NCBI GenBank assembly: GCA_000447245.1
Contig: AUYT01000001.1
Location: 804,106 to 868,105 of the forward strand
Length of the DNA: 64,000 nucleotides
Reading direction: 5' to 3'
Source of the DNA: a candidate division Zixibacteria bacterium RBG-1
GTDB lineage: Bacteria; Zixibacteria; MSB-5A5; DSPP01; RBG-1
This document shows, one piece after another, positions 20,007 through 44,319 of this stretch. Each line of letters opens with the position of its first letter. Position 1 is the first letter of the stretch. The notes under the pieces were generated by a model that was not told the origin of the DNA, searched no databases, and worked only from the letters and a program-made list of their open reading frames with translations. A program made the translations under genes and the position numbers.

Positions 20007-20615
20007 ATGGACCGCTTCATAAATCTTTACATCCTGTTTTACCTAATCGTGGGGAATATTATATTCGGAATTGTTAACCGAAAGTTTTCCTCTGACGATG
20101 CGCCTATTATTAAAAGAGACAAAAGCTACCGGATGCTGCATACTATCCGCTTCAGCTTACTTTTTATCTGGGCAGTGGGATTTTTTCTGGCGGAGTTAAA
20201 TCAGCTTAAATTACTTCCACAAGCAGAACCAACCCGAACTTATATAAGACTTTTCGGCTTGATTTTATTTACACTAGGAGGTTTGTGGATTTTATGGTCA
20301 CGCTGGACCTTGGGGAAATGGTTTTCCACCAAGTTTGCCATCAAAAAGGGACATCAGATTATAAAGACCGGTCCTTACAAGATTATGCGGCATCCTATTT
20401 ATTTGGGAGGCACTTTAGCCATCTGGGGATTTACTCTGGCTTTGGATAGTTTGATAACTTTGCTAATTTTGGCCATCCCCATACCCATTACCTTTTATCT
20501 GAATATCAAAGCCGAAGAGAGATTATTCCTAAAAGAGATGGCTGGCGAATATCAGAAATATCAGCAAGAAGTTCCTCGCTTAATTCCCTTTCTGAAAACA
20601 AAAGCCAAAACTTAA
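20007..20615 (+). CDS. ICMT/PEMT-family membrane methyltransferase
   Basis: 202 aa, multi-TM; C-terminal motif MRHPIYLGG...EERLFLKEMAGEYQKYQQEVPRLIP typical of isoprenylcysteine carboxyl methyltransferase-like proteins. Confidence 0.65.
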   Translation: MDRFINLYILFYLIVGNIIFGIVNRKFSSDDAPIIKRDKSYRMLHTIRFSLLFIWAVGFFLAELNQLKLLPQAEPTRTYIRLFGLILFTLGGLWILWSRWTLGKWFSTKFAIKKGHQIIKTGPYKIMRHPIYLGGTLAIWGFTLALDSLITLLILAIPIPITFYLNIKAEERLFLKEMAGEYQKYQQEVPRLIPFLKTKAKT

Positions 20616-20630
20616 TAAAAAATAGTACCA

Positions 20631-20720
20631 GTCATCCTGAACCCTTCGGCTGACTCAGGGTAAATGCAGTGAAGGATCTAGAAGGAAAAGATGAGATTCT
20701 TCGCCTACGCTCAGAATGAC
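20631..20720. mobile_element. MITE-like element with imperfect terminal inverted repeats GTCATCCTGAA / CTCAGAATGAC
   Basis: About 90 bp; related copies at 30208-30300 (same orientation) and 33268-33367, 34849-34933 (inverted). Confidence 0.55.
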
Positions 20721-20804
20721 AAAAATGAAATTCCCAGTGTTAGAAACCACTGGGCTATCCTAACTTTTTTTAAGCTCTCCCGGAGCTTATTTATTCTTGG
20801 ACCC

Positions 20805-21341
20805 TCAGCCGGCTTTAAAGGCGGGGACATAACTTTCACGGGCGAAAATATTGACCGGGGACGAACCGATTCTTTGAGCAATTTCCTGGGATATTTTGTC
20901 TAAATCCTCTTTGGCAAAGCCTTCACAGGTGAACAAAATCTCCTGATTTTTATCAATCAGAAACAAAGTCGGCACGACCGTGATTCCATAGGCATAAGAG
21001 ATTTGATAATTATTCTGGTCCAACAAGAGAGGGAAACTGATTTTGTACTCTCTGGCAAACTGCAGGGTCTCGGCCTGGTTATTCTGCGAAATTCCCCAAA
21101 GGGTGAATCCTTTTCCGGCATAATTTTTATGTAATCTTTCTAAAAAGGGAAAAGTGAACTGGCAGGTGGGGCAGTTGATTTTGAAAAAAGCGATTAAAGT
21201 TAAATCGGTGCTTAGTTTTTCCTTTCCCGACATTGTCGGATCCGCCTTTGGCGGAAAAGAGTAAGTTTTACCATCTGTTCCGCTTAATTTAAAATCCGGG
21301 GCTTTGGTTCCTGTTTCTAAAAGCGCCATTTTCACCTCCAA
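20805..21341 (-). CDS. thioredoxin-fold redoxin (TlpA/AhpC-TSA-like)
   Basis: 178 aa; CxxC motif in FFKINCPTCQF. Confidence 0.65.
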   Translation of the reverse strand: MEVKMALLETGTKAPDFKLSGTDGKTYSFPPKADPTMSGKEKLSTDLTLIAFFKINCPTCQFTFPFLERLHKNYAGKGFTLWGISQNNQAETLQFAREYKISFPLLLDQNNYQISYAYGITVVPTLFLIDKNQEILFTCEGFAKEDLDKISQEIAQRIGSSPVNIFARESYVPAFKAG

Positions 21342-21384
21342 CGTTCAGTCAATATAAAAAATTTGTTATTTGTGTCAACTGTTT

Positions 21385-21440
21385 GGGTCGGGAGACCCAA
21401 ACCTACACACAATATCCGAGTAGGTCAAGGTCTCCTGACC
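21385..21440. repeat. palindromic hairpin repeat (GGGTCAGGAGACCC family)
   Basis: Two arms (GGGTCGGGAGACCCAAACCTAC / GTAGGTCAAGGTCTCCTGACC) forming a long inverted repeat; copies at 25795, 33932, 37241. Confidence 0.6.
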
Positions 21441-21447
21441 TTGACAT

Positions 21448-21771
21448 TTATTTTTTACGATGAAACAGATGCCGGATGGTTCGTACAATCAATTTTACAT
21501 CCCCCTTCAACCCTAATTCTTTGATTTGATTGATTATTTTTTGCTGGTCTAATTCATCTTTTTGGTAGATTACCTCAATTCTACGGTTGTCTGCATCCAC
21601 TCTGGCTTCTACTACTCCCGAAAGCCCTTCCAGGACTTTTTTGGTTCTATTAGCTCAGAAGCCGCAGGGAATGCCTATTACTTCCAAGGAAAGTTGGTTT
21701 AGATTGTTCTCCTTGGGTGTATCAGAGAGGGCCTTGATTTTTAATCTGGCGAATAGATTTTTCAGTTTCAA
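21448..21771 (-). CDS. HMA (heavy-metal-associated) domain protein with in-frame TGA at the second Cys of the CxxC motif; candidate selenoprotein or pseudogene
   Basis: Hand translation of the minus strand gives ...LEVIGIPCGF[TGA]ANRTKKVLEGLSGVVEARVDADNRRIEVIYQKDELDQQKIINQIKELGLKGDV..., matching the ferredoxin-like HMA fold across the TGA (plus-strand 21655-21657); start uncertain (TTG at 21771 or 21687). Confidence 0.45.
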
Positions 21772-21912
21772 TTTGATGGCTATTTATCTTATTTACGAAT
21801 TGAAACAGGAAATCCGTAACTTCCGGTTTTATATAATACCAAGCCCTAATCTAATTTCATTCACTCTACTCAAAAACCTTTCAACTTTCGGATAAATACT
21901 TCGTAGCATAAA

Positions 21913-22251
21913 TTGAAAATGAAATTTTACCCAAAAAGTATAGCTTTTTTTCAAGCCCTGGGCTTAGCCCTCTATGTGGGCCTGTTTGCCTTTCTGGCGA
22001 TTCATATCGTGCCCTGGTTTGAAAATAATCCAGCCACGCATCCGGCCTTAGGAATCATTCTTTTTCTATTGGCCTTCGTCATTTCAGCCGTCATTTCAGG
22101 GTCGATAATTCTGGGATATCCGATTTTTCTTTTCTTTGAGGGCAAGAGAAAGGATGCCTTAAAAATAGTCTTGTGGAGTGTGGTCTGGCTCCTGCTTTTA
22201 CTAGGGATTTTTGTGGTCATGGCCCTTCTTTCCTTACCCGCTAAGAGCTAG
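21913..22251 (+). CDS. hypothetical small membrane protein
   Basis: 112 aa with three predicted hydrophobic helices. Confidence 0.35.
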   Translation: MKMKFYPKSIAFFQALGLALYVGLFAFLAIHIVPWFENNPATHPALGIILFLLAFVISAVISGSIILGYPIFLFFEGKRKDALKIVLWSVVWLLLLLGIFVVMALLSLPAKS

Positions 22252-22319
22252 AGCTTTCCTTAGTGGTTCAGGCTTACTTTAGATCGAAATCTGTGGCTGG
22301 AATTTTTGGTCTGTTTGAT

Positions 22320-22352
22320 ATAAAAAAATTAGGTCGGGTGTTATCCCGACCT
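22320..22352 (-). terminator. putative rho-independent terminator
   Basis: Hairpin AGGTCGGG-TGTTAT-CCCGACCT (22331-22352) followed on the minus strand by a T-run, downstream of the minus-strand gene 22407..22946. Confidence 0.4.
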
Positions 22353-22406
22353 AACCTAACGGGGGAAAATAGCTCCTTTATATCTTTACCCTAGTTTCAA
22401 TTTTTT

Positions 22407-22946
22407 TTAAGGCGCAGTCTGAACTAAACCCGGACCGCTGAACTCAACCAGCCCGGTGCTTAATTTCTCTTCGGTGTCAAACCTAAGTACAACTTGGTCC
22501 TGGTGGTCCTTCCCTAAATCTTCGGCTTCAATCTCCAGCATCAATCCCACAAAATCGGCGGTATTGGAGACGATAATTTCCGCCATCAGTCTGATTTTGT
22601 CATTTACCTCAAAACCGGTAAGCTCAAATTCGCTGTAGAAGCTGGAATCGTCTGACTTTTGGATATGTCCGGAACCGAAACAGTTTTTCCCATTGGTTCT
22701 ATGACCTGTCACTGTCAGATAAATCGTGCCCATCTGCCCGTTGGTCAGCTGGTTGGACTCAATGGCCACATTGTTGACTTCGGCCCGTGTGGGCCCGCCC
22801 TGGGAATTGAAGATTCTGCTGGTAGAATCACATCCCAGAAGAGCAAAACTTAAAAGCAAAAGAATTCCAAATAATCCGAGGGTTTCGGCTTCGCCAATCC
22901 TGGCGGATTGGGCTTTTATCCTGTAGGGACAAATTGACTTCTGCAC
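22407..22946 (-). CDS. hypothetical lipoprotein
   Basis: 179 aa; hydrophobic leader ending in lipobox-like LLGC. Confidence 0.4.
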   Translation of the reverse strand: MQKSICPYRIKAQSARIGEAETLGLFGILLLLSFALLGCDSTSRIFNSQGGPTRAEVNNVAIESNQLTNGQMGTIYLTVTGHRTNGKNCFGSGHIQKSDDSSFYSEFELTGFEVNDKIRLMAEIIVSNTADFVGLMLEIEAEDLGKDHQDQVVLRFDTEEKLSTGLVEFSGPGLVQTAP

Positions 22947-23188
22947 AAATCTCCTGTCTCTGAGCTTTTTTTGTCCCCCGCTCGTTATAAATATAGCTTA
23001 AAGTCGATTTTTGTCAATATGCAAAATGGAGGCAATGGGCTGATTTTAGCGTAAAATCGGGCTTTTGAGACGGGTCTACGATAGAGTAATTATCTTATTG
23101 ACTTTTCTGGAGGTTTTGATTATATTTTGAACAGGGATGGGTCAGAGGGTTGCAAAAATAGACCCTTAAGGTAAATCCGGGGGGATTT

Positions 23189-25690
23189 ATGAGATGCTGT
23201 AATAGCTACAAATTAACCAGGTGGGTGGCTGTAAGTATACTAATCCTCACCTCCAGCTTTGTTCAAGCGAAATTAAAAAGCGACCAATCTAAATCAGTTC
23301 ATCAGTATCCACAAACTGCAGCCGACCCCCTGACTCAAACCAGGGTTCATAAAATCGGGAATATCTGGCTCTCGATTACGAACTTCGGCCAAATTGGAAG
23401 TGGAGGGAAAACCTATAAAGATGTATGCACCAACCAACCAGCCCCATCTTGTCAGTTTCCGGCTGGCTCGGGGATTGAATATCTTTACATAGGGGCTCTC
23501 TGGATAGGGGCAGTGATGAATGATACGGATACTTTGGTTGCGGTGGGGCATGATGGCTGGCAGAATGTGCAGGAATTTGGTCCTACGTCAACCGGGGCCA
23601 TAGTTTCGAGAACTATCCGACCTGATGGTTATCAACAAGATAACTGTTTTGTTCCCTATTCAGATTCGGCAAAGTCGGAACTGGATTATATTGCCGTGTA
23701 TTATGATACGGTAACAAGACAGGATATCCCCAGCATACCGGAAAGAGATAGACCACTAAATTTAGAGATTACCCAAAAAAGCTACAGCTGGAGTTATGAA
23801 TATGCCAATGATTTTGTACTGTTCGATTATTCAATAAAGAATATTGGGACCAATAAATTAACCAGTGTTTATATAGGATTTTATATTGATTTTGATATCT
23901 ATAATCAGAGTTTTGATGGAGGTGGTTATTTTGATGATATTGCCGGCTTTAAGTTTTCAGTGCCTTCACCCTATGATCCCCGTCTGGAAGATACAGTCAG
24001 CATTGCCTGGGGTGCGGATAATGATGGATTATCTGCTGCGCGAGTGGAAGGAGACGTTTTCCTAGACAATTTTAGCCCTACAGGAGTCCTGGGAACGAGA
24101 GTGCTTCGGTCACCAAATCCTGATTTAAAGCATTCTTTTAACTGGTGGGTTTCTAATGGAAATCCTCAGTTGGATTTTGGACCCTGGACCCAAGCCAATC
24201 TTGCCAGGCGCCCAAACTATTTCGTTCCTAATGGCCAATCCGGAACTCCGGAATCTGATCGGTCTAAATATTTCATCATGAGTAATAATGAATTTGATTA
24301 TGACCAATTGTTTGCTGCTTTACCAGAGATTTGGGAGCGACAGGGTTGGGTAAACCAGACCCAAATTTCACCCGACAATCTGGCAGATATTGCCGACGGT
24401 TTTGATAGCCGCTATCTGTTGTCTTTCGGTCCTTTCGACATTGATTCTGGTGAGGTTCTTCCGTTGACCATCGCTTTAGTGGCCGGAGAAGATTTTCATG
24501 TTAAGCCGACTGATTTTAATTCGTATAGTGCGACTGACAGTGCGGCGGTCTTTAATTTTTACAATAAGCTTGATTTTACCTCTTTAGCCGCCAATGCCCA
24601 TTGGGCTGCCTGTGTCTATGACAATCCGGGGTTTGATACTGACGGGGACGGTTATAGAGGGGAATTCCGAATAATTGCTGGTGATACAATCTATAAATGC
24701 GGGGACGGAGTTCCAGATTTTCAAGGTCCGCCTCCCCCACCTGCTCCCCAATTGAAATTTGAAACCTCCTACGGAACCGTAAAAATCAAATGGAATGGCA
24801 AAACGACTGAAAAGTTTTTTGACCAATTTACCAATCGAAGAGATTTTGAGGGTTACCGAATCTATGGCAGCTGGACTGGAATTTTGGGGGATTTTTTTCT
24901 TCTGGATTCATTTGACAAAATGAATTATAAGTTTTTCTACTGGGATAAAGGGAGAAAAAAATGGGTTTACAAGCTTACCGACTTAAGCCTGGACTCTCTT
25001 GTGACTTTGTTTAAGCCAGACGACCCTTGTGAGGGTGCAAGACCTTGCCCCTTGGAGAGCTTATCTTTTTGTTCTGACCCTGACACTTGTGACGACTGGG
25101 ATGTTGCCAGATGGAATTTATATCATCCTTATATCTATCAGGGAACCCAAATAGAAACTTTAAGGATTGCTCCCAATTTAATCATTACCAGGGGGGATTC
25201 GATTTATTTCGACAGGCAGGACTATAACAGAGGTCTATTACCAATCAAGACTTACAAAGACAGTATCTTGAATGGGAGCATTGGTTCAGATGATGACAGA
25301 TATTATGAGTATGAATATGTAATTGATAACTTGAATCCCAATGAGCCCCTTTATTTCGCAGTTACGACTTTTGATTTCGGAGATCCAATAACACGTTTGA
25401 CCCCTTTGGAAACCAGTGTTCTGGCTAATTCTAAATTAGTTTATCCCCGAGTTTGTCTGGCTAAACCGGGGGATGTTAATGAAGATGGGGAGGTTCTGTT
25501 ATCGGACGTGATAGCTATGATTAATATCCGTTTTACATGGTGGCCCCCTCGTCCCATTCATACCTGCAGAATGGACATGAATGGTGATGGGTGGGAACTA
25601 TTTGCAGATATAATCTATCTGGTTAATTACCTATTTAAAGGTGGCCCAAAGCCACAGGTTGTTGAAGAGTGTTGTTTGGTAGGTAATTGA
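23189..25690 (+). CDS. large secreted hypothetical protein with C-terminal dockerin-like tandem repeats
   Basis: 833 aa; signal peptide; C-terminus GDVNEDGEVLLSDVIAMIN...MDMNGDGWELFADIIYLVNYLFKGGPKP...CCLVGN resembles duplicated dockerin Ca-binding loops (DxNxDGxxxxxD). Confidence 0.55.
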   Translation: MRCCNSYKLTRWVAVSILILTSSFVQAKLKSDQSKSVHQYPQTAADPLTQTRVHKIGNIWLSITNFGQIGSGGKTYKDVCTNQPAPSCQFPAGSGIEYLYIGALWIGAVMNDTDTLVAVGHDGWQNVQEFGPTSTGAIVSRTIRPDGYQQDNCFVPYSDSAKSELDYIAVYYDTVTRQDIPSIPERDRPLNLEITQKSYSWSYEYANDFVLFDYSIKNIGTNKLTSVYIGFYIDFDIYNQSFDGGGYFDDIAGFKFSVPSPYDPRLEDTVSIAWGADNDGLSAARVEGDVFLDNFSPTGVLGTRVLRSPNPDLKHSFNWWVSNGNPQLDFGPWTQANLARRPNYFVPNGQSGTPESDRSKYFIMSNNEFDYDQLFAALPEIWERQGWVNQTQISPDNLADIADGFDSRYLLSFGPFDIDSGEVLPLTIALVAGEDFHVKPTDFNSYSATDSAAVFNFYNKLDFTSLAANAHWAACVYDNPGFDTDGDGYRGEFRIIAGDTIYKCGDGVPDFQGPPPPPAPQLKFETSYGTVKIKWNGKTTEKFFDQFTNRRDFEGYRIYGSWTGILGDFFLLDSFDKMNYKFFYWDKGRKKWVYKLTDLSLDSLVTLFKPDDPCEGARPCPLESLSFCSDPDTCDDWDVARWNLYHPYIYQGTQIETLRIAPNLIITRGDSIYFDRQDYNRGLLPIKTYKDSILNGSIGSDDDRYYEYEYVIDNLNPNEPLYFAVTTFDFGDPITRLTPLETSVLANSKLVYPRVCLAKPGDVNEDGEVLLSDVIAMINIRFTWWPPRPIHTCRMDMNGDGWELFADIIYLVNYLFKGGPKPQVVEECCLVGN

Positions 25691-25794
25691 ATCTCTGAAA
25701 GCTACCCTGTAACGTCCCGTTTTACACTTAACAGTATCCCGTAGGGACACGGGACGTACGCCCTATGTAAAATAGGGGGTTACAGATATATTTT

Positions 25795-25850
25795 GGGTCA
25801 GGAGACCCAAATCTACCCAGGAATCCAGGGTAGGTCGAGGTCTCCTGACC
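25795..25850. repeat. palindromic hairpin repeat (GGGTCAGGAGACCC family)
   Basis: GGGTCAGGAGACCCAAATCTACCC...GGGTAGGTCGAGGTCTCCTGACC; a further inverted-repeat region (ACGTCCCG / CGGGACGT) lies at 25700-25790. Confidence 0.6.
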
Positions 25851-25888
25851 TCGACTGAAGCAAAAATGAAATTCCCTGAACTTTCTAC

Positions 25889-25917
25889 TTGACAAATAAT
25901 TAGCCGATAATTAAATT
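25889..25917 (+). promoter_or_regulatory. putative sigma70-type promoter (TTGACA-17-TAAATT) of the Rrf2-suf operon
   Basis: Consensus -35 hexamer and 17-nt spacer, about 55 nt upstream of the Rrf2 start. Confidence 0.4.
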
Positions 25918-25970
25918 AGTTACAGGGAAACCTAACAAATCTGTCGGGTTTTCGTATATGTAGTGTAGAT

Positions 25971-26420
25971 ATGAGGATAACTAAACAAGAAGAGTATGGG
26001 TTGCGCTGTATTTTGCAGTTAGCCCAGAATGGGACTGACTCTAAAACTACGGTGGAAATAGCGGCTAAAGAGGGGCTGTCCATGGATTACGTGACCAAAC
26101 TCTTAATCTTGTTAAGAAGACATAAGATTGTGGAGTCGGTCCGGGGTGTTAAAGGCGGTTATCGACTGGCAAGAAATCCCGAGAAAATAACTGTCGGGCA
26201 GGTGATGCGGGCTTTGGGTTGGTCGGTTCTGGATGAATCTTTATGCCGACATTATCCGGGGAAACTGGATAGCTGCATCCATCTGCAGGGCTGTGGTATC
26301 AGACCAATCTGGATGAAAGCGGCTAAGATGATGTATAAGCTTTTGGATTCAACTACCTTGGCAGGATTGTTAAAAGAAGAAGGGGTTATCACGCAAGAAT
26401 TGGAAAGCAAAGAAGCATAG
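25971..26420 (+). CDS. Rrf2 family transcriptional regulator (IscR/SufR-like)
   Basis: 149 aa; N-terminal wHTH typical of Rrf2 (ITKQEEYGLRCILQLA, GVKGGYRLAR); first gene of the suf operon. Confidence 0.8.
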   Translation: MRITKQEEYGLRCILQLAQNGTDSKTTVEIAAKEGLSMDYVTKLLILLRRHKIVESVRGVKGGYRLARNPEKITVGQVMRALGWSVLDESLCRHYPGKLDSCIHLQGCGIRPIWMKAAKMMYKLLDSTTLAGLLKEEGVITQELESKEA

Positions 26421-26539
26421 TATATTTTTTGTTGCAATAGTGGACTTTTTTGTCAGGTTTCGTATAATGAAAGATAAAAAGTTTCAATAGGTTACACTAT
26501 CCCGTAGGGAAAAGTTAAATTAAGAAATAACGAGGAGAA

Positions 26540-27310
26540 ATGAGCAAGGAACCAATTCTAAAAATTGAAGACCTGCATGTGGCAGTTGAAGGAAAAGAGA
26601 TTTTAAAAGGGTTAAACTTAACCATAAACAAAGGGGAAGTGCATGCCTTAATGGGCCCAAATGGCTCCGGGAAATCCACTCTGGCCTATGTGCTAATGGG
26701 GCATCCGAAATATCAGGTTACATCTGGTAGGGTGTGGTATAAAGGAGAAGAGATATTAGCTCTAAAACCGAATGAGAGAGCCAAGAAAGGTTTATTTTTG
26801 GCGTTTCAGTATCCAACACCGATTCCGGGTGTGACGGTAATGAACTTTTTACGGGCGGCTTTGAAAGCAGTCCAAGGGAAAGAGATTCCAGCCAAAGATT
26901 TTTTGAAACTTTTAAAAGAGAAAATGAAATTTTTGGAAATTTCGGATCAGTTTTCTAACCGCTATATCAATGATGGTTTCTCCGGCGGGGAAAAGAAAAG
27001 GCATGAGATTTTGCAGATGGCGATTTTGGAGCCGGAGATGGCGATTTTAGATGAAACTGATTCAGGTTTGGATATTGATGCTTTGAAAACTGTGGCCAAA
27101 GGAGTCAATCGTTTAATCGGACCCAATCTGGGTATTTTATTGATCACTCATTATCAGAGAATGCTGAATTACATTAAACCGGATTTCGTGCATGTCTTAG
27201 TAGATGGAAAAATTGTCCAGTCCGGTGGAGATAAATTAGCTTTGAAATTAGAAGAGTTGGGGTATGATTGGACCGTGGAGAAAACAGAAACACTTTCAGT
27301 TGAGAAATGA
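26540..27310 (+). CDS. sufC: Fe-S cluster assembly ATPase SufC
   Basis: 256 aa; Walker [13 protein letters not shown] signature FSGGEKKR; ends with TGA stop. Confidence 0.9.
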
Positions 27311-27345
27311 TTGTCTGGATATGGAGGAAATTAAATAAGGAGTGT

Positions 27346-27433
27346 TCCCTCTCCTTTAAGGAGAGGGTTAGGGAGAGGTCAGTAGTAAAATATAAAAACT
27401 GACCCCTCCTTTATCCTCCCCTCTAGGGGAGGA
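27346..27433. repeat. palindromic repeat unit (CCCTCTCC..GGAGAGGG family)
   Basis: CCCTCTCCTTTAAGGAGAGGG and TCCTCCCCTCTAGGGGAGGAG hairpins between sufC and sufB. Confidence 0.55.
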
Positions 27434-27467
27434 GATGAAAAATAAAATTAAGAAAGGAAGTAATTTT

Positions 27468-28883
27468 ATGGCAGAAAAAGAATTTACAGATGTTCAGGAC
27501 ATAGGCAAAGATTATAAATACGGATTCAAAGACCCGGAGAAACATGTTTTTAAATCCAAAAGGGGCTTAACTCGTGAAGTTGTAGAGGAAATCTCCTGGA
27601 TGAAAAAAGAACCGGAGTGGATGCGGAATTTCCGCTTAAGAGCGCTGGATATCTTTTTGAAAAAACCGATGCCTACTTGGGGAAGTCCGATTTTAGCCGA
27701 GATTGATTTCGACAACATTTTTTACTACATCAAACCCATGGAAAATCAGGGAAAATCTTGGGATGACGTTCCCGAAGATATCAAAAGGACCTATGAAAAA
27801 TTGGGGATTCCGGAAGCGGAAAGAAAATTTTTGGGCGGGGTGTCAGCTCAGTATGAATCGGAAGTGGTTTATCACAGCTTAAGAAAAGACTTGCAAGCCC
27901 AAGGAGTGATTTTCTTGGATATGGACTCAGGCTTGAGAGAATATCCAGATATTGTCAAAAAATATTTTGCAACTGTAATTCCAGCAGGTGATAACAAATT
28001 TTCGGCTTTAAATTCAGCGGTTTGGTCCGGGGGTTCATTTATCTATGTTCCAAAAGGAGTGGATGTCAAGATTCCTCTGCAGGCCTATTTCAGAATCAAT
28101 GCTGAAAATATGGGGCAGTTTGAGAGAACTTTGATTATTGCGGATGAAGGTTCATCGGTCCATTATATCGAAGGATGCACAGCACCAGTTTACTCCACCG
28201 ATTCATTGCATTCAGCGGTAGTGGAGCTGATTGCACTCAAAGGTTCAAAATTGCGATACACCACTATTCAGAACTGGTCTAAAAATGTTTACAACTTGGT
28301 CACCAAAAGAGGAATTGCTCACGAGGATGCCACGATTCGATGGGTGGATGGAAATTTAGGCAGCAAATTGACTATGAAATATCCTTCGGTTTATATGGTG
28401 GGTAAAGGTGCTTACGGTGAAGTTTTATCCATCGCTTTTGCCGGAAAAGGGCAGCATCAGGATGCCGGGGCTAAGATGGTGCACGTGGCGCCAGGTACTT
28501 CATCTACCATTGTTTCCAAATCTATTTCCAAAGATTCCGGCAGAACTTCTTATCGGGGTCTGGTTAAGGTTTACAAGGGTGCTACCGGGGTGAAATCTAA
28601 TGTCAGATGTGATGCTCTTTTGATGGATGAAGAGTCCCGTTCAGACACTTATCCTACAATGGAGATTGATGAAGAAAATGTCAATGTCGGTCACGAAGCC
28701 ACAGTTTCCAAAGTAGGGGAAGAGCAGCTGTTCTATCTAACTTCTAGAGGAATTTCAGAGCAGGAAGCAACTTTGATGATTGTGAATGGATTCATTGAGC
28801 CTTTTACCAAAGAGTTGCCTCTGGAATATGCGGTGGAGCTGAATCGTCTGATACAATTGGAGATGGAAGGTTCGGTAGGATAG
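27468..28883 (+). CDS. sufB: Fe-S cluster assembly protein SufB
   Basis: ORF 27435..28883; likely start at ATG 27468 (AAGGAAG RBS); strong SufB-family similarity throughout. Confidence 0.85.
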
Positions 28884-28892
28884 TAGAATAAA

Positions 28893-30206
28893 ATGTTTGA
28901 ATTTGAAAAAAATTTCACCAAAGAAAAATTAGAGCTACTTTCCAAATCCAGAAATGAGCCGCAGTGGGTTTTAGAAAAAAGGAAAAAGGCATTTGATGCC
29001 TTTCAAGCTTTAAACTGGCCTACCAAGCAGGAAGAGGACTGGAGAAGGACTGATTTTTCTCCATTGGAGAAGTCAAATTTTGACTTGAACAGATTTTTAA
29101 ACTCCTCTAAATTCATTACCAATGGTTCGGCTTCGCTCACCACAAGCGGTCAACCGACTGCACAGTTCTCAGCGCAACTTTTACAGTCTGATTCAGAGTC
29201 TATTTTCTCCGGTGAAGCGGAGTTTAAGTCATCCAAAATAATTTTTACTGACTTAGATTCTGCTATTAAAAATCATTCTGAAATTCTTTCAAAATATTCT
29301 GATTTAATCAATCCCAATGATGGGAAATTTTTGGCTTTCAATAAAGCTTTCTGGAATAAGGGTATGCTTCTGTATGTTCCAAAAGGAGTGACGGTATCTC
29401 TGCCACTTTATCATCAGCTAAATCTGAAATCTTCCGGCTGGGGAGTTTTTCCTTACACTATAATTATTGCAGAGCCAAATAGTAAAATAATTTTGGTGGA
29501 TGATTACACCAGCCAAGAGCAAAAAGATTGGGCTTTCTCCGATGCTCTGACAGAAATTTATCTGCAGAGAGATGCTCAATTAATTTATGTCAACTCTCAA
29601 AGATGGTCTGGGAACGTTTATCATTTGTTGAGACAAAAAGCCAAATTAGAAGCTAATGCCCAGCTGATTACTTTGACAGTCAATTTAGGCAGTCAAAAAT
29701 CCCGTTCGGAAATTGAGACAGAATTGGCAGGTTCCGGCGCTTCTGCCTACATTTTCGGTTTGACAATTGGCAACGGGCAACAAACTTTTGAGCAACATAC
29801 TCTGCAGGATCACAAAGCACCCCATACCACCAGTGATTTGTTATTCAAAACAGCTTTGCTTGATTCGGCTTATGCGGTTTATTCCGGCCTAATCAAAGTG
29901 GAAAAACAAGCCCAAAAAACTGATGCCTATCAAGCCAATCGGAATTTACTTCTCTCGGACAAAGCCAAAGCCGATACTTTGCCGAAGTTGGAAATTTTGG
30001 CCAATGATGTCCGCTGTACGCACGGTGCCACAGTCGGTCCGATTGACCCGGAGCAGTTTTTTTATTTAATTTCCCGAGGAATTGAAGACAAGGTTGCCAA
30101 ACAACTTTTGATCGAAGGGTTTTTTGATGAAGTTCTGGGTCGCATAAAAGAAAATGGATTTAAAGATAAGATTAAAGAATTTTTGGAGGAAAAGATTGTT
30201 GAATAG
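28893..30206 (+). CDS. sufD: Fe-S cluster assembly protein SufD
   Basis: 437 aa; SufB/SufD-family beta-helix region; position between sufB and sufS. Confidence 0.8.
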   Translation: MFEFEKNFTKEKLELLSKSRNEPQWVLEKRKKAFDAFQALNWPTKQEEDWRRTDFSPLEKSNFDLNRFLNSSKFITNGSASLTTSGQPTAQFSAQLLQSDSESIFSGEAEFKSSKIIFTDLDSAIKNHSEILSKYSDLINPNDGKFLAFNKAFWNKGMLLYVPKGVTVSLPLYHQLNLKSSGWGVFPYTIIIAEPNSKIILVDDYTSQEQKDWAFSDALTEIYLQRDAQLIYVNSQRWSGNVYHLLRQKAKLEANAQLITLTVNLGSQKSRSEIETELAGSGASAYIFGLTIGNGQQTFEQHTLQDHKAPHTTSDLLFKTALLDSAYAVYSGLIKVEKQAQKTDAYQANRNLLLSDKAKADTLPKLEILANDVRCTHGATVGPIDPEQFFYLISRGIEDKVAKQLLIEGFFDEVLGRIKENGFKDKIKEFLEEKIVE

Positions 30207-30207
30207 T

Positions 30208-30300
30208 GTCATCCTGAATGAAAGTGAAGGATCTGATTTTTTCAAAAGAGAGATTCTTCGCTACAGTTTACCCTGAGCCTGTCGAAGGGCTCAGAATGAC
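30208..30300. mobile_element. MITE-like element (GTCATCCTGAA...CTCAGAATGAC)
   Basis: Begins 2 nt after the sufD stop and ends 11 nt before the Rieske gene start; same family as 20631-20720. Confidence 0.55.
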
Positions 30301-30311
30301 AAATAAAAATT

Positions 30312-30620
30312 ATGGAATACAAAGTGGCTGAAATTGGAGAAGTTACTCACGGAGGGATGAAAATCGCGAAGGCTGGGGAGAAAAATTTGATGTTATGCAA
30401 CGTGGCTGGGGAATATTATTGTGTGGATAATGTTTGCACCCATGATGGAGGAACTCTAAGTGAAGGTGAATTAATCGATGATGAAATTGAATGTCCCCGG
30501 CATGGGGCTCATTTTAATGTTAAAACTGGAGCCGTGATGACTCTACCTGCAATTTTCCCAATTGCTACGTATTCGGTGAAAGTGGAAGGGAAAGATATAA
30601 AAGTCATTATTAAAGAGTAA
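30312..30620 (+). CDS. Rieske [2Fe-2S] ferredoxin-like protein
   Basis: 102 aa; CTHDGGTLSEG (CxH) and CPRHGAHF (CxxH) Rieske ligands. Confidence 0.8.
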   Translation: MEYKVAEIGEVTHGGMKIAKAGEKNLMLCNVAGEYYCVDNVCTHDGGTLSEGELIDDEIECPRHGAHFNVKTGAVMTLPAIFPIATYSVKVEGKDIKVIIKE

Positions 30621-30624
30621 AAGT

Positions 30625-31884
30625 ATGCTAAACGTTCAAAAAATCAGAGAAGATTTTCCAATATTAAATCAAAAAATTCACGACAAGCCCTTGGCTTATC
30701 TGGACAATGGCTCCACTTCCCAGAAGCCTAAAGTGGTAATTGATGCCATTACTAATTATTACAACTGGTATAATTCCAATATCCATCGGGGGATTCATAC
30801 TTTGAGTGAGAAAGCCACCGAAGCTTACGAAAATGTTAGAAAAATCGTGGCTGATTTTATAAAAGCTCCTGACCCAGAAGAAATAATTTTTACCCGCAAT
30901 GCTACCGAAGCTGTAAATTTGGTAGCTTATGCCTGGGGGAGAAAAAATATTTCTACCGGTGATGAGATTCTTTTAACTGAAATGGAACATCACTCTAATT
31001 TAATCCCCTGGCAGATTTTGGCTAAGGAGAAGAAAGCGGTCTTGCGGTTTATTCCTATCACTCAAAATTTCACTCTGGACTTAGATAAAATTGAAGATTT
31101 GATAACTTCTAAAACCAAGCTGGTAGCTGTGACCCAGATGTCCAATGTTTTGGGAACTATAAATCCGGTTAAAAAAATAGCTGGGTTGGCTCATAAGGCC
31201 AAGGCCTTATTCTTGATAGATGGAGCCCAGGGTGTGCCTCATTCTGGTATCGATGTAGCCAATGTCAACTGTGACTTTTTAGCATTCACTGCTCACAAAA
31301 TGTTAGGACCAACTGGCGTGGGAGTTCTATACGGTAAGAAAAAATTGTTAGAAGAGATGGACCCCTTTATTGCTGGGGGAAGTATGATTTTAGAGGTTTG
31401 GCAAGATCGAGCTACTTGGAACAAAGTCCCTTACAAATATGAAGCCGGAACTCCCAATATTGCAGACGTCATTGCCTTTGGTGAAGCGATAAAATATTTG
31501 CAAAATATCGGCATGGAAAATGTCAGAAACCATGAGAAAGAGTTGACCGCTTACGCTTTGAAAAAACTTTGTGAAACTGAAGACTTAACTATCTATGGTC
31601 CTAAAAATCCGGAACTTCAAGGAGGAATAATCTCTTTTAATTTCTCCGCCAAAGGCGGATCCGACTCTGTCGGAATAGATATACATCCACATGATGTTGG
31701 TACTATCGTGGATCAAGAAGGAGTAGCAATAAGAGCTGGGCATCACTGCTGTCAGCCTTTGATGAGAAAATTAGGGATTCCGGGAACTGCGCGAGCCAGC
31801 TTTTATATTTACAATACTAAAGAAGAAATTGACCAGTTGACTTTTGCTCTGGGAAAAGTCAAAGAGGTGTTTGCACGTTTATAG
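30625..31884 (+). CDS. sufS: cysteine desulfurase SufS
   Basis: 419 aa; PLP-lysine region TAHKMLGPTGVG and active-site Cys region GHHCCQPLMRK. Confidence 0.9.
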   Translation: MLNVQKIREDFPILNQKIHDKPLAYLDNGSTSQKPKVVIDAITNYYNWYNSNIHRGIHTLSEKATEAYENVRKIVADFIKAPDPEEIIFTRNATEAVNLVAYAWGRKNISTGDEILLTEMEHHSNLIPWQILAKEKKAVLRFIPITQNFTLDLDKIEDLITSKTKLVAVTQMSNVLGTINPVKKIAGLAHKAKALFLIDGAQGVPHSGIDVANVNCDFLAFTAHKMLGPTGVGVLYGKKKLLEEMDPFIAGGSMILEVWQDRATWNKVPYKYEAGTPNIADVIAFGEAIKYLQNIGMENVRNHEKELTAYALKKLCETEDLTIYGPKNPELQGGIISFNFSAKGGSDSVGIDIHPHDVGTIVDQEGVAIRAGHHCCQPLMRKLGIPGTARASFYIYNTKEEIDQLTFALGKVKEVFARL

Positions 31885-31989
31885 CACGAATAAATAGTCG
31901 GGTGCAGGGACCCGACTTCTACCCGGCTTTGGGTAGCACTGGGTCCCTGAACCCAGTGCTAAGCTCATATAAAGCGAGTGAAATAAATT

Positions 31990-32454
31990 ATGTCAGCCAT
32001 TGAAGATTTATATCGAGAAATAATTTTGGACCATTATTCTTCTCCCCGTAATCGAGGAGAATTACCGGCTCCAGCTTTAAAAATTGAAGGGGCAAATCCG
32101 CTTTGTGGGGATGAGCTGGTTTTATACATTGAAGAAAAAGATGGCCAAATCAAGCAGGTAAAAATAAATACCAAAGGTTGCTCTATCTCACAGGCCTCGG
32201 CTTCTTTGATGACCGAAGCTATCGTTGGGAAAAAAATCGAAGAAATTCAGAAAATTATTGAGAATTTTAAAGATATGATGCTAAAAGATGGTTCATTTAC
32301 TCCTACAGTTGATTTGGGGGATTTGGAGGTTCTGGAAGGGGTCAAAAAATATCCGGTCAGGATTAAATGTGCTTTGTTGGCTTGGAATACTTTGATAGAG
32401 GGGCTGAAAGCATTACAGAATCACAAAAAGCCAGAGCCGGTGGTGATGGAGTGA
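31990..32454 (+). CDS. sufU: SufU/IscU-like Fe-S scaffold / sulfur acceptor
   Basis: 154 aa; conserved Cys in NPLCGDE and KGCSISQASAS typical of SufU. Confidence 0.8.
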   Translation: MSAIEDLYREIILDHYSSPRNRGELPAPALKIEGANPLCGDELVLYIEEKDGQIKQVKINTKGCSISQASASLMTEAIVGKKIEEIQKIIENFKDMMLKDGSFTPTVDLGDLEVLEGVKKYPVRIKCALLAWNTLIEGLKALQNHKKPEPVVME

Positions 32455-32469
32455 ATATTAAAAGATATT

Positions 32470-32518
32470 TACCTCTCCCCATCCCTCCCCTAAAAGGGGA
32501 GGGTAAGGGAGGGGTTAG
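32470..32518. repeat. palindromic repeat unit (CCCTCCCCTAAAAGGGGAGGG family)
   Basis: TCCCTCCCCTAAAAGGGGAGGGTAAGGGAGGGGTTAGT between sufU and the DUF59 gene. Confidence 0.5.
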
Positions 32519-32534
32519 TTAAGAAGGTGAAATT

Positions 32535-32876
32535 ATGACGGAAAACCTGAATAATCAAAATCAACAGTCGAATAATCTGGACGCGGAGACTTTGAAAGAG
32601 CAATTGAAACAGATTGTGGACCCGGAGATTAATATCAATATCGTGGATCTAGGTTTGGTTTACAAAGTTGAAAATAAAGACGGGGATATTTTAATCGATA
32701 TGACTCTGACCTCACCGGTCTGCCCTTTTGGGGAAGTGGTGAAATCAGAAACTATCAGAATTTTAAAAGAGCTTCCCGGTGTCAAAGAAGTTCATATAAA
32801 TATCGTCTGGGACCCTCCTTGGAATCCCTGGGAGATGGCATCCGAGGAAGCAAAATTACAATTAGGTTTGTTATGA
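32535..32876 (+). CDS. DUF59/MIP18-family Fe-S assembly protein (SufT-like)
   Basis: 113 aa; motif IVDLGLVY...TLTSPVCPFG characteristic of the DUF59 family. Confidence 0.75.
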   Translation: MTENLNNQNQQSNNLDAETLKEQLKQIVDPEININIVDLGLVYKVENKDGDILIDMTLTSPVCPFGEVVKSETIRILKELPGVKEVHINIVWDPPWNPWEMASEEAKLQLGLL

Positions 32877-32895
32877 ATTTAAAGAGAGGAGTGAT

Positions 32896-33255
32896 ATGAT
32901 AACTTTAACCAAAATTGCAGCAGAAGAATTGAAAAGAGTCATCAAAGAAAATAATTTGCCGGAGAGTTCGGCTTTAAGAGTAGAAGTGAGAGAGGATGGA
33001 TGTTCTTCGCATGGAACTCCTTATTCTTACTACATTAAACTGGAAGAAAGCCCAGCCACTTCTCAGGATAATGTCTTTGAATCAGAAGGGGTAAAAGTTT
33101 TGGTTGCCCAGGCCAGCTTGCAATATATTCAGGGTCTTAGTCTGGATTTTGTGGAGTCGATCCACGGACGGGGATTTGCCTTTACCAATCCAAATGCCAA
33201 GCGCTCCTGCGGGTGCGGGCACTCATTTAGCGTAGACGAAGAAAAAGAGAATTAA
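32896..33255 (+). CDS. A-type Fe-S cluster carrier (HesB/IscA/SufA family)
   Basis: 119 aa; C-terminal SCGCGHSF signature and upstream Cys (DGCSSHG). Confidence 0.85.
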   Translation: MITLTKIAAEELKRVIKENNLPESSALRVEVREDGCSSHGTPYSYYIKLEESPATSQDNVFESEGVKVLVAQASLQYIQGLSLDFVESIHGRGFAFTNPNAKRSCGCGHSFSVDEEKEN

Positions 33256-33267
33256 CCTCTATTTTTT

Positions 33268-33367
33268 GTCATTCTGAGCCCCGACCCCTACGGGATGGTG
33301 TAACCATAAATCGGGGCGAAGAATCTCATCATTCAAAAAAAAGATCCTTCACTTCGTTCAGGATGAC
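33268..33367. mobile_element. MITE-like element (inverted orientation of the GTCATCCTGAA family)
   Basis: GTCATTCTGAGCCCCGACCCCTACGGGATGGTGTAACCAT...TTCAGGATGAC; first 45 nt identical to the copy at 34849. Confidence 0.6.
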
Positions 33368-33410
33368 CCAATTATCTTTGGAGTGGCAGAGTTAAAATAA
33401 GGGAGGAGAA

Positions 33411-33914
33411 ATGGATGTAGCCAGAATTCAGGAGTTATATAAATATAATGCCTGGGCCAATGGCCAGGTTTTTGAATCAGTCGCAAAATTAACCCCGGAG
33501 CAATTTAATAAGGATTTGGCTACCAGTTATCGTTCGGTCAAAGGTACTCTGGTTCATATCGTGGGAGCGGAATGGATCTGGCTCAGAAGGTGGCTGGGAA
33601 CTTCTCCCAAAGCTCTTTGGGACCCGGCCGAATTTTCTTCGGTAGAACAAATCAAAAACCGTTGGGAAGAGGTGGAACGGGAAAGAAAAGAATTCCTCTC
33701 CGACCTAACCGAAGACTCTCTCAGGAAACCTTTGGCTTATACCAATATCAAAGGGCAACCTTTTAGTTATCCTTTGTGGCAGGCCTTGCAGCATCTGGTT
33801 AATCATTCCACTTATCACCGGGGACAGGTTACGACCCTGCTCAGGCAATTGGGTGCCCAGCCAAAGGGGACAGACCTTCTGGCATATTACGATGCTAAAT
33901 TCGGGCAAAGATAA
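33411..33914 (+). CDS. DinB/YfiT-like family protein
   Basis: 167 aa; N-terminal YKYNAWANGQVF and His residues of the DinB_2 four-helix-bundle family. Confidence 0.65.
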   Translation: MDVARIQELYKYNAWANGQVFESVAKLTPEQFNKDLATSYRSVKGTLVHIVGAEWIWLRRWLGTSPKALWDPAEFSSVEQIKNRWEEVERERKEFLSDLTEDSLRKPLAYTNIKGQPFSYPLWQALQHLVNHSTYHRGQVTTLLRQLGAQPKGTDLLAYYDAKFGQR

Positions 33915-33931
33915 CTTGAATGCCAGGCCTT

Positions 33932-33992
33932 GGGTCAGGAGACCCAAGGCTACCCAAGAAATGCATATAGGGTAGGGTCGGGTCTCCTGACC
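33932..33992. repeat. palindromic hairpin repeat (GGGTCAGGAGACCC family)
   Basis: GGGTCAGGAGACCCAAGGCTACCC...GGGTAGGGTCGGGTCTCCTGACC. Confidence 0.6.
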
Positions 33993-34008
33993 TAACCAAA
34001 ATAAAATT

Positions 34009-34833
34009 TTATTTCACCAAAAGATTTTTTTCTTGGTAAATTTCTAATCTTCTATCTTTGAAAATATGATTCTTGGAATTTACCTGTTTAAGGTTGGCTA
34101 ATTTGGGATTAATCTCTGCCACTTGTAGTTCTTCTTTGTCAGCCGAAGCTTGAGCTAAGATATTTCCGTCCGGGTCCACTATCATACTGCGACCGGCAAA
34201 TTTTAATTTTCTTTCCACCCCTACACGGTCACTAGTGACAATAAAAATTCTATTTACAATAGCGTGTCCAGGTAAAGCTCTGAAAGATAATTTCGGGACA
34301 ATTAAATTAGAAGGATGAGCGATAATCTGTGCCCCCTTCAAAGCTAAAATTCTCCAGGCCTCCGGAAATCTCCAGTCAAAACAAACTAAAATTCCCACCT
34401 TGACTCCGTTTATCCTGAAAATCGGCAATCCTAAATTCCCCGGCTCAAATATATCCTTTTCTTTGTAGAATAAATGCAGTTTGCGGTAAGTTCCGATATA
34501 ACCTTTCGGTCCGACCAAAACTGCTGAATTGTAAAGTTTTTTCCCTTTTATGGTGAGTTTTGTCGAACCATCTTTTTCATTTATTCCGGCTACAATGAAA
34601 CATTTTTTCTGCTTGGCCAGAGAAATCAGAAATTGAGAGGATTTGCCGTGTGGTATCTCTTCAGCAAATTTAAAAGCTTCTTTCGTATCTCTGAAATTGT
34701 AACCGGAATTGCAAAGTTCCGGCAAGACTAAAAGGTTTAAATTTTTAATCCGGGAAAGACTTTTTTCAATCTTTTTTAAATTGTAATCTATTTTCCCTAA
34801 TTTAGGGTCGAACTGAAAAAAAGCGACTTTCAT
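34009..34833 (-). CDS. carbon-nitrogen hydrolase family protein (nitrilase superfamily)
   Basis: 274 aa; Glu (VLPELC), Lys and Cys (ILVCFDWRFPE) catalytic-triad contexts. Confidence 0.8.
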   Translation of the reverse strand: MKVAFFQFDPKLGKIDYNLKKIEKSLSRIKNLNLLVLPELCNSGYNFRDTKEAFKFAEEIPHGKSSQFLISLAKQKKCFIVAGINEKDGSTKLTIKGKKLYNSAVLVGPKGYIGTYRKLHLFYKEKDIFEPGNLGLPIFRINGVKVGILVCFDWRFPEAWRILALKGAQIIAHPSNLIVPKLSFRALPGHAIVNRIFIVTSDRVGVERKLKFAGRSMIVDPDGNILAQASADKEELQVAEINPKLANLKQVNSKNHIFKDRRLEIYQEKNLLVK

Positions 34834-34848
34834 CTTCTCATTTTATGT

Positions 34849-34933
34849 GTCATTCTGAGCCCCGACCCCTACGGGATGGTGTAACCATGAATCGAGGTCA
34901 GCATGACTTATATGGCACTTCGTTCAGGATGAC
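34849..34933. mobile_element. MITE-like element (GTCATCCTGAA family, inverted orientation)
   Basis: Direct repeat of the 33268-33367 copy; the two flank the DinB and CN-hydrolase genes. Confidence 0.6.
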
Positions 34934-34944
34934 AAATACAAAAC

Positions 34945-36672: not shown

Positions 36673-36921
36673 AGCGCTCCTTTCATGGTGAGCTTAAGCC
36701 GAACCATGAGTTTTTTTAATATACGAAATTTTCGCGGCAATGCAAGCTCAAGCCATTCACCAAATCCTTTCAAAGTTGGCGATACATCACAAAATTTTGG
36801 TGATTACCAGCTGATACAAATGTGATTTACAAAATCTATTTGTCTGATTAGTTGACTGGTGGAATGTGAAATTGTTTTGGGAGCTTTGAAAAAAGTATAA
36901 CGAGATAAAAAACAAAATCAG

Positions 36922-36968
36922 ACCCTCTTTTCCCTCTCCTCTTAGGGGAGGGTAAGGGTGGGGTAAGT
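36922..36968. repeat. palindromic repeat unit (CCCTCTCC family)
   Basis: CCCTCTTTTCCCTCTCCTCTTAGGGGAGGGTAAGGGTGGGGTAAGT. Confidence 0.5.
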
Positions 36969-36994
36969 TAATCAAAAAAATGAAAACATAAACT

Positions 36995-37306
36995 ATGCCC
37001 AGAAAAATAAGCAAAGTCAGGGGGGAGCACGGCTTAAATTTTTTTATTAGCTACCAGCTGAAAAAAAGGTTACAAACCCTGGCCCAAAAATATGACACTT
37101 CTCTGGCGGAGATTGTCCGGACCCTGCTAAAAATCGGGATACCGGTTCTAGAAGGATATAAGCAAGCTCAAGAGCAGGCGGAGAAAGAGCTTGATAAATT
37201 GACCCATGTCCCTACAGGATTCAGTCGGAAAAAAATCTCTGGGTCAGGAGACCCAGAGCTGCCCCAGGGTAGGGTCAGGTCTCCTGACCTGACCAATGAA
37301 ATTTAA
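36995..37306 (+). CDS. small ribbon-helix-helix-like protein (putative DNA-binding)
   Basis: 103 aa; the segment LKKRLQTLAQKYDTSLAEIVRTLLKIGI resembles CopG/Arc RHH; the C-terminal 20 codons run through a hairpin repeat, so the true stop is uncertain. Confidence 0.35.
   Translation: MPRKISKVRGEHGLNFFISYQLKKRLQTLAQKYDTSLAEIVRTLLKIGIPVLEGYKQAQEQAEKELDKLTHVPTGFSRKKISGSGDPELPQGRVRSPDLTNEI
37241..37290. repeat. palindromic hairpin repeat (GGGTCAGGAGACCC family)
   Basis: GGGTCAGGAGACCCAGAGCTGCCCCAGGGTAGGGTCAGGTCTCCTGACC. Confidence 0.6.
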
Positions 37307-44305: not shown

Positions 44306-44319
44306 TATTTCATTCTCTG

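Follow-up and report, generated by a model that had tools for sequence, protein, structure and literature searches.

Four short elements in a 64-kb stretch of the genome of Zixibacteria bacterium RBG-1 (hereafter the window, meaning the whole of the DNA analysed) can be assigned, with good support, to a known family: they are dimers of TGTC-tagged hairpin repeats of the Ssn type, within the CGTC/TGTC-tagged superfamily of repetitive extragenic palindromes (REP). They are numbered 1 to 4 by their starts at 20631, 30208, 33268 and 34849. [quoted passage not shown] The fuller explanation, which is probably correct as a whole, is that these REP-type dimers are gene-less relatives of a module in which two such hairpin units enclose an ssn gene (unit-ssn-unit), and that they are, or once were, substrates of an Ssn-type nuclease encoded elsewhere.

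Each element is made of two inverted units of ~25 nt on opposite strands, with an A/T-rich spacer of 14-16 nt between them. The unit has the consensus 5'-Y-GTC-ATYCT-GA-RY-GNA-RY-GA-AGRAT-C-3', an imperfect palindrome (ATYCT / GA / RY / loop / RY / GA / AGRAT) preceded by GTC and followed by C. Folded as a single strand, it is predicted to form a stem of 5 bp followed by two G·A pairs in tandem, 2 further bp and a closing GNA triloop, with an upper portion that varies or is enlarged. Exact matches to GTCATYCTGAR number eight in the window and lie at the eight element ends (0.18 expected by chance), a count attained by none of 100 shuffles; three further matches with one mismatch, in coding sequence or beside a terminator, are attributable to chance. 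All eight termini begin with GTC, and the C 3' of the stem is kept in the six intact units (AGGATC or AGAATC). The 11-bp terminal inverted repeats first proposed stand as conserved inverted termini but not as simple transposon ends, being the outer halves of the hairpin units.

The four copies share this plan and differ in their loops, which are GAA, GAAA, GTAG or longer structured inserts (3-4 nt or 27-31 nt). Unit A takes the form GTCATCCTGAACGAAGTGAAGGATC and unit B the form GTCATTCTGAGC..GCGAAGAATCTC. Two elements lie in each orientation, as had been reported, reading A-to-B on the + strand at 20631 and 30208 and on the - strand at 33268 and 34849. The insert CCCTTCGRCWGRCTCAGGGTAAA, with arms that are 85% complementary (repeat family I10), is shared by element 1 (in unit A) and element 2 (in unit B), and unit B of elements 3 and 4 has an extended, branched stem; folded as DNA, that of element 3 reaches -15 kcal/mol (z = -4.67). 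In element 4 the middle has been replaced, so that both units lack their 3' stem halves and, with them, the 3' C. The internal motifs GTGAAGGATC and GAGATTCTTCGC, first attributed to the whole set, occur in three elements, but the 34849 copy lacks both. That copy and the one at 33268 are indeed direct repeats sharing 55 nt at 93% identity (repeat family D17), but their first 45 nt are not identical as claimed, unbroken identity extending over only 40 nt.

The same unit is found far beyond RBG-1. The survey pattern GTCATYCTGARN{3,9}GAAGRATC, run on viral contigs and GTDB genomes, found at least 120 stretches in each, where chance matches could by rough estimate number some tens (viral contigs) and hundreds (the whole genome collection); the matches are taken as real because positions that the pattern leaves free are conserved. 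Position -1 is T in 80% of 223 distinct units and C in 13% (93% together), the loop is GNA in 81% (GCA 67, GAA 66, GTA 25 and GGA 23), and the tail is C-T-C, its first C fixed by the pattern, with T in 79% and the last C in 53%. The Y/R stem pair is Watson-Crick in 219 units where 111.5 are expected, and the inner R/Y pair in 213 where 159 are expected. Hosts include Nitrospirota, Patescibacteria of the candidate phyla radiation (CPR), Bacteroidota, Chloroflexota, Acidobacteriota, Gemmatimonadota, Omnitrophota, Ignavibacteria, Firmicutes, Planctomycetota and Proteobacteria, for more than 15 phyla in all plus viral contigs. The unit is not an artefact of metagenome-assembled genomes (MAG), since cultured Planktothrix, Calothrix, Granulicella and Hymenobacter carry it on plasmids as well. 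The expectation that further copies would exist outside the window is borne out, with GTCAT units in relatives of RBG-1 and in many other genomes. Many of the IMG/VR contigs (L009-L128) hold units adjoining phage genes, and in one (L009, 1420-2308) two units enclose an open reading frame (ORF) with the C-terminal domain of a tail fibre.

Which gene, if any, travels with these units? A tolerant pattern gave 498 units in ~2 Mb of unit-bearing loci, for which gene calls were crude. Clustering the ORFs within 2.5 kb of them returned no transposase family and no partner gene, the clustered ORFs being phage structural genes and ABC, SDR and LLM enzymes; the genes bracketed by distant unit pairs are mostly ordinary as well (GidB, glycosyltransferase, ADH). 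Among the ORFs enclosed by unit pairs, Pfam picked out a GIY-YIG protein of 108 aa, in locus L148. Phmmer then finds exactly three GIY-YIG genes in the ~2 Mb (L133, L148 and L167, from Cyclobacteriaceae, Saccharibacteria and Gracilibacteria genomes), and all three sit inside a unit pair with tags outward; in L133 the complete module of unit, 93-aa ORF and unit spans ~350 bp. A reciprocal test used 80 metagenome loci picked by protein similarity alone, 76 of them evaluable. The specific unit pattern lies within 200 nt of the GIY-YIG gene on both sides in 37 of the 76 and on one side in 12, and unit density is 4.15/kb near the gene against 0.20/kb far from it, a 21-fold local enrichment. Upstream units are on the + strand in 42 of 55 cases and downstream units on the - strand in 50 of 73. 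With a generalised definition (GTC-W-Y tag, stem of 7-9 positions, 3' C), 63 of the 76 loci are flanked on at least one side. The first-pass annotation had raised the idea of a gene-carrying partner with the same inverted ends; such a partner exists elsewhere as unit, small GIY-YIG nuclease gene and unit, but it carries no transposase.

The GIY-YIG family is large and remarkably well conserved, with 70-78% identity across Deltaproteobacteria, Ignavibacteriales, Cyanobacteria, Planctomycetota, Chloroflexota and Bacteroidota. One of its proteins, P0195, is carried by 24 contigs, and its gene context is identical in all 10 places shown, which marks it as a single-locus gene in the manner of a REP-associated tyrosine transposase (RAYT) rather than a multi-copy gene in the manner of an insertion sequence (IS). 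On its downstream flank, units are nested three deep in each other's loops.

This arrangement has a close published counterpart. In Neisseria the repeat NTS (CGTCATTCCCGCGMAVGCGGGAATCYRG) is bound, as single-stranded DNA only, by SsnA, a 94-aa single-domain GIY-YIG protein of class cd10448 (Chenal 2025, Nat Commun, PMC11893778). SsnA cleaves a few nucleotides 5' of the motif under the control of three bases upstream of the palindrome; binding is controlled by the C directly after it, and the loop can be removed or extended (PMC11893778). Neither RNA nor double-stranded DNA nor the reverse strand serves as substrate; Ssn-related motifs (SRM) lie on either side of most Ssn genes, in the layout NTS-ssnA-NTS; and in N. 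meningitidis the system restrains natural transformation (PMC11893778). An IS-like or domesticated origin is a hypothesis of the same authors (PMC11893778).

The present units share with SRM, NTS and dRS3 an oriented hairpin, an HGTC tag 5' of the stem, A-T and T-A first pairs, the 3' C and a variable loop. They are, like the published motifs, imperfect palindromes of 20-50 nt with HGTC in one orientation and a 3' C, and in other genomes these multi-copy repeats flank small GIY-YIG genes, as the inverted repeats around the ~94-aa single-domain gene do in the published system. Pfam places the flanked proteins in GIY-YIG at the level of the domain, cd10448 being the published Ssn class, and by reading the sequence against the mutant names they carry Tyr17 and Glu64 at the positions mutated in SsnA. 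The units differ from SRM in their two tandem G·A mismatches and GNA triloop, and in hosts: proteobacterial symbionts are emphasised in the published work, whereas the present units extend to Zixibacteria, CPR, Chloroflexota and viral contigs.

A second counterpart is the superfamily of CGTC-tagged REPs, which "apparently lack a dedicated transposase" (Di Nocera, De Gregorio and Rocco, BMC Genomics 2013, PMC3733652). It was reported in five phyla, mostly Alphaproteobacteria, and includes dRS3 of Neisseria and RPE-6 and RPE-4 of Rickettsia; the tag is often TGTC, with a CCTC variant, and is followed by a stem of 8-9 bp whose first and second pairs are A-T, a loop of 4-5 nt and a 3-nt tail of consensus CCA (PMC3733652). 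These repeats are mainly inverted dimers with spacers of 20-100 bp, located between co-directional or convergent genes (PMC3733652). Shared with the present units are the unpaired CGTC/TGTC tag, the A-T start of the stem, the short tail, the inverted dimers, the gene locations and the lack of a transposase. The present stem, ATYCT-GA-RY, has nine positions and begins A-T then T-A with two G·A pairs, the loop is 3 nt (GNA) or greatly enlarged as against 4-5 nt, and the tail is CTC as against CCA.

Could the elements be classical MITEs after all, internally deleted copies of an IS with a DDE transposase that share its terminal inverted repeats? The outermost bases are often TG...CA, the termini are inverted over 11 bp, and the copies are 85-100 bp long and lie in both orientations; like IS-derived MITEs they form a small, non-coding, dispersed family, and to this extent the original description stands. 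However, none of the four window copies is flanked by a target-site duplication, no transposase is linked to them, and neither a transposase family near the 498 units nor a transposase-bearing parent IS appears in the ~2 Mb. The supposed terminal repeat is an internally paired, covarying hairpin that folds on itself and also occurs singly, single units being as common as pairs (239 of 498). An origin as classical MITEs is, on this evidence, extremely improbable.

A second possibility is that these are REPINs, with a RAYT (a Y1 transposase of the HUH class) as their mobilising enzyme, in the manner of GTAG-tagged REP doublets. The likeness is real (Bertels and Rainey 2011; Nunvar 2010): doublets of inverted hairpins that carry no gene and have an unpaired 5' tag accompany a small nuclease gene enclosed by hairpins of that kind, hairpins in single-stranded DNA are the substrate, and P0195 has a fixed gene context as RAYTs do. 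Palindromes that look GTAG-tagged also occur in the window (D3/D4/D8 and D15), so that a RAYT may well exist in the genome. Yet the tag of the present units is YGTC and not GTAG, the enzyme encoded between them is GIY-YIG and not an HUH Y1 protein, the units are near-identical across phyla, and CGTC REPs have no linked transposase (PMC3733652). No RAYT stands beside the ~500 units in ~2 Mb; a phmmer search with E. coli RayT against ~11,600 ORF pieces returned one frameshifted gene as its sole RAYT-like match, and regular expressions (over the window and for the HUH/Y motifs) added none, the 64-kb window itself giving no RAYT gene by this means. Mobilisation by a RAYT is therefore very unlikely. 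The frameshifted gene (L168, 4515-4950, from an Acidobacteriaceae MAG) is a pseudogene lying between inverted copies of another palindrome, CCTCAGCGGCTAAAGCCGC, in a REPtron-like layout; ~650 nt away, an inverted-repeat element of ~110 nt splits a GTCAT unit, and CTGAG is duplicated at the ends of this element.

The arrangement of the units bears on a third possibility, that they act at the level of RNA as terminators, mRNA stabilisers or processing sites tuning the suf operon and its neighbours. Adjacent pairs among the 498 units are tags-outward in 95 cases, as in the window (median spacer 29 nt), inward in 24 and direct in 18, and the 239 single units have no partner within 150 nt. Among 25 strict dimers nine are identical pairs, with no clear preference for homodimers or heterodimers. 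In favour of an RNA-level role, REPs in E. coli can stabilise upstream mRNA, a matter also discussed in PMC3733652, and all four window elements lie downstream of a gene 3' end. Divergent genes seldom have units between them: with crude gene calls, this is the place of 6 of 95 single units and of 6 of 136 units in dimers. Against such a role, the elements overlap none of the 33 terminator-like sites within 20000-36000, and the true terminator-like hairpins beside element 1 (20733-20789, downstream of it) are separate from the element and conserved in relatives. Single units show no orientation bias with respect to transcription (31 versus 27), Rfam at gathering thresholds matched only a tRNA and none of the elements, relatives hold different repeats or none in the same spacers, and SsnA is inactive on RNA (PMC11893778). 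A function as RNA signals is accordingly improbable. A literature search with the exact sequence gave unrelated primer matches only.

Comparison with relatives separates the history of the repeats from that of the genes. The gene context first given is borne out, in the order SufA, element, DinB, a different hairpin repeat, CN-hydrolase, element and amidohydrolase, and the 30208 copy does lie inside the suf operon, between the sufD stop (30206) and the Rieske gene (30312). By Pfam, the genes on either side are PEMT-like and AhpC-like for element 1, SufD and Rieske for element 2, SufA and DinB for element 3, and CN-hydrolase and amidohydrolase for element 4. The SufD encoded here matches that of RBG-1 at 100% identity. 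In two relatives (L003 and L006, SufD 87-89% identical to RBG-1) the order from PEMT-AhpC through suf to SufA-DinB-CN-hydrolase-amidohydrolase is kept. The spacers corresponding to elements 3 and 4 contain no GTCAT element in either, being an empty 40-bp spacer or holding unrelated repeats; the SufA-DinB spacer is 40 bp and element-free in L003 and has a different palindrome in L006. L003 does carry a GGGTCTGGAGACCC-type element in its PEMT-AhpC spacer, at the exact position of window element 1, and a single remaining B-type unit between sufD and Rieske, with the right boundary as in RBG-1. In L006 a GTCAT unit pair occupies the sufB-sufD spacer, which in RBG-1 is a junction of 9 nt. The repeats thus come and go by lineage while the genes stay put, since orthologous spacers differ and gene order does not; the relatives, at ~80-90% DNA identity, are too divergent to give element boundaries to the base. 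Clean pairs of empty and filled sites were not obtained, the phage pairs L116/L054, L034/L048 and L069/L103 aligning poorly.

The proposal that the DinB and CN-hydrolase genes form a recombination-prone cassette between two direct repeats does not hold up. Gene order is conserved in both relatives, and nine contigs of the same population (98.6-100% identical) have elements 3 and 4 in every case, with no indels or other polymorphism. Logan assemblies of this population terminate within elements 3 and 4, as repeats would predict, with two Logan contigs ending in element 3 at 33294 and L339 at 33286.

How might such dimers relate to the module? The layout of a gene between inverted units holds for the tandem-G·A subfamily, and the window elements have the same ends and no gene. 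The RBG-1 copies are probably gene-less derivatives or relatives of unit-ssn-unit, gained and lost by lineage in 3' and intra-operon spacers, and would be, or would once have been, substrates for an Ssn-type nuclease whose gene lies in another part of the genome. With the tags outward, either strand, on becoming single-stranded, would expose at the element's 5' edge a single hairpin in the correct orientation. The explanation also supposes a route by which copies multiply, and any effect on suf or DinB expression would be secondary.

Several observations weigh against this explanation. Only four copies occur in 81 kb of RBG-1, clustered within 14 kb, and element 4 is truncated. No ssn gene is present in the 81 kb read of the 2.12-Mb genome (the window extended by 8.8 and 8.6 kb), and no Zixibacteria-named Ssn is among the top 120 matches of the protein searches. 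The identification of the flanked GIY-YIG proteins as Ssn draws on size, single-domain architecture, the Y17/E64 positions and the flanking repeats, and is to that extent a putative one. The published SRM search string, HGTCWYN(0-2)YYVSBRHN(0-5)WNVSBRGN(0-2)RNCYNB, finds NTS, yet matches no part of the window and none of the 223 units, because it fails at the G·A positions; it is a search aid, not a definition of the family. Finally, nearest-neighbour DNA folding gives the canonical unit the expected hairpin as its minimum free energy structure but a weak one (-1.9 kcal/mol, z = +0.46), so the support for the hairpin comes from covariation and not from predicted energy. Sheared G·A pairs and C-GNA-G triloops are unusually stable in DNA (the d(GCGAAGC) literature) and go uncredited by standard DNA parameters.

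Because element 4 is degenerate, a live alternative is that the elements are inert relics, members of the Ssn-motif/CGTC-REP family in a genome that has lost, or never had, a cognate nuclease, decaying neutrally in tolerant spacers. Element 4 lacks half of both units, the 81 kb hold four copies and no ssn gene, and element content is uniform in all population contigs, which gives no hint of recent movement. The tag, both stem halves and the 3' C are nevertheless intact in six of the eight units, repeats have been gained and lost at several suf-operon spacers of the relatives, and the negative for an ssn gene covers 81 kb, with ~96% of the genome outside that range. Relic status is on balance rather unlikely.

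At the other extreme, the unit-ssn-unit module could represent a new enzymatic class of mobile element, active, driven by a GIY-YIG nuclease of single-stranded DNA and horizontally spread (more than 15 phyla, and phages), with gene-less dimers as its MITE-like offspring and insertion into single-stranded hairpin loops producing a "Russian-doll" nesting; this idea is doubtful. Nesting as such is observed: units lie inside the loops of other units at L343 (3299-3430), L251 (1356-1465), L291 (1776-1880) and L253 (79-170), up to three levels deep in L343, and it is rare (4 of the 266 distinct clusters). On the outside are units with the long loop (GTCATYCTGAR-CCCTTCG...CAGGACRGGCTCC-GYGAAGRATC), a type to which unit A in element 1 and unit B in element 2 of the window also belong. 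The nesting suggests hairpin loops as possible insertion sites. The flanking unit in L253, which comes from the same JGI project as the relatives, resembles element 1.

Table 1. Elements, hairpin units and other repeats, with positions in the 64-kb window
Feature	Position	Strand	Description
Element 1	20631..20720	+	Inverted hairpin-unit pair, tags outward; between PEMT-like stop (20615) and convergent AhpC-like gene
Element 1, unit A	20631..20678	+	Long loop; GTC-ATCCT-GA-A[CCCTTCGGCTGACTCAGGGTAAATGCA]GT-GA-AGGAT-C
Element 1, unit B	20693..20720	-	GTC-ATTCT-GA-GC-GTAG-GC-GA-AGAAT-CTC, read on - strand
Element 2	30208..30300	+	Inverted unit pair; 2 nt past sufD stop, 11 nt ahead of Rieske start
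Element 2, unit A	30208..30233	+	GTC-ATCCT-GA-AT-GAAA-GT-GA-AGGAT-C
Element 2, unit B	30250..30300	-	Long loop; insert CCCTTCGRCWGRCTCAGGGTAAA
Element 3	33268..33367	-	Inverted unit pair; between SufA (end 33255) and DinB (start 33411)
Element 3, unit B	33268..33327	+	Extended stem and branched loop; GAGC-CCCGA...TCGGG-GCGA
Element 3, unit A	33343..33367	-	Canonical; GTCATCCTGAACGAAGTGAAGGATC
Element 4	34849..34933	-	Decayed pair; between amidohydrolase stop and CN-hydrolase start; first 40 nt as in element 3
Element 4, unit B	34849..34897	+	Truncated; tag, 5' stem and long loop present, GCGAAGAATCTC absent
Element 4, unit A	34916..34933	-	Truncated; GTCATCCTGAACGAAGTG present, AAGGATC absent
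I7 palindrome	21222-21258		Inside AhpC-like ORF 20805-21341 (- strand)
I7 palindrome	31642-31678		Inside SufS, 30625-31884
GTAG-tagged REP candidates D3/D4/D8	21382-21445, 25792-25855, 33929-33999, 37240-37296		Intergenic palindromes
GTAG-tagged REP candidates D15	9039-9061, 46239-46261, 48575-48597, 50090-50112		Intergenic palindromes
Paired-palindrome family (D2, D6, D7, D9, D11)	8907-8947, 27343-27432, 32463-32529, 36912-36978		
Paired-palindrome family, more sites (D2, D6, D7, D9, D11)	37373-37453, 41363-41446, 44221-44316, 50214-50237		
Coding tandem array (D1, D5, D10)	53644-54089		Period 27-87 nt, rich in GGC/GTT codons

The window holds other repeats besides these elements (Table 1). 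Two families of intergenic palindromes look like REPs with a GTAG tag, a type associated with RAYT transposases; examples are GTAG-GGTCAGG-TCT-CCTGACC and tGTAGC-GGTGCGAT-TC-ATCGCACC, often as inverted doublets, and the hairpin repeat between DinB and CN-hydrolase is one such copy. A paired-palindrome family, CCCTCTCC-nnnn-GGAGAGGG beside arms of TAGGGAGAGGT type, is abundant in spacers, including the sufC-sufB spacer and the one after a NifU-like gene (31990-32454). With all repeat families taken together, the intergenic regions of this 2.1-Mb genome look like mosaics in the style of bacterial interspersed mosaic elements (BIME). A double palindrome, CCGACAnnGTCGG-ATCCGCCnnnGGCGGA (I7), lies in frame within two coding sequences. 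AhpC of RBG-1 has a 10-aa insert (PPKADPTMSG) absent from both relatives, and SufS an insert of ~10 aa that is absent in L006 and longer in L003 (SAKGGSLPDKTRQAGDSVGI); by analogy, these in-frame palindromes resemble the palindromic insertions known from Rickettsia. The tandem array at 53644-54089 probably encodes a glycine-rich repeat protein and is unrelated to the elements.

With the four elements assigned to the Ssn-type dimers, the range of the recently described system of Ssn nucleases and hairpin repeats takes in a Zixibacteria genome, as well as viral contigs and many uncultivated phyla. For annotation, the repeats explain assembly breaks in this region, and flanking repeats by themselves make poor evidence of a mobile cassette. 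The main addition is a large subfamily with tandem G·A pairs and a GNA loop that crosses phyla and falls outside the published SRM string, and published counts relying on that string would omit it for this reason. The CGTC REPs, for which no transposase was found in 2013, gain a candidate partner enzyme, at least for the present subfamily.

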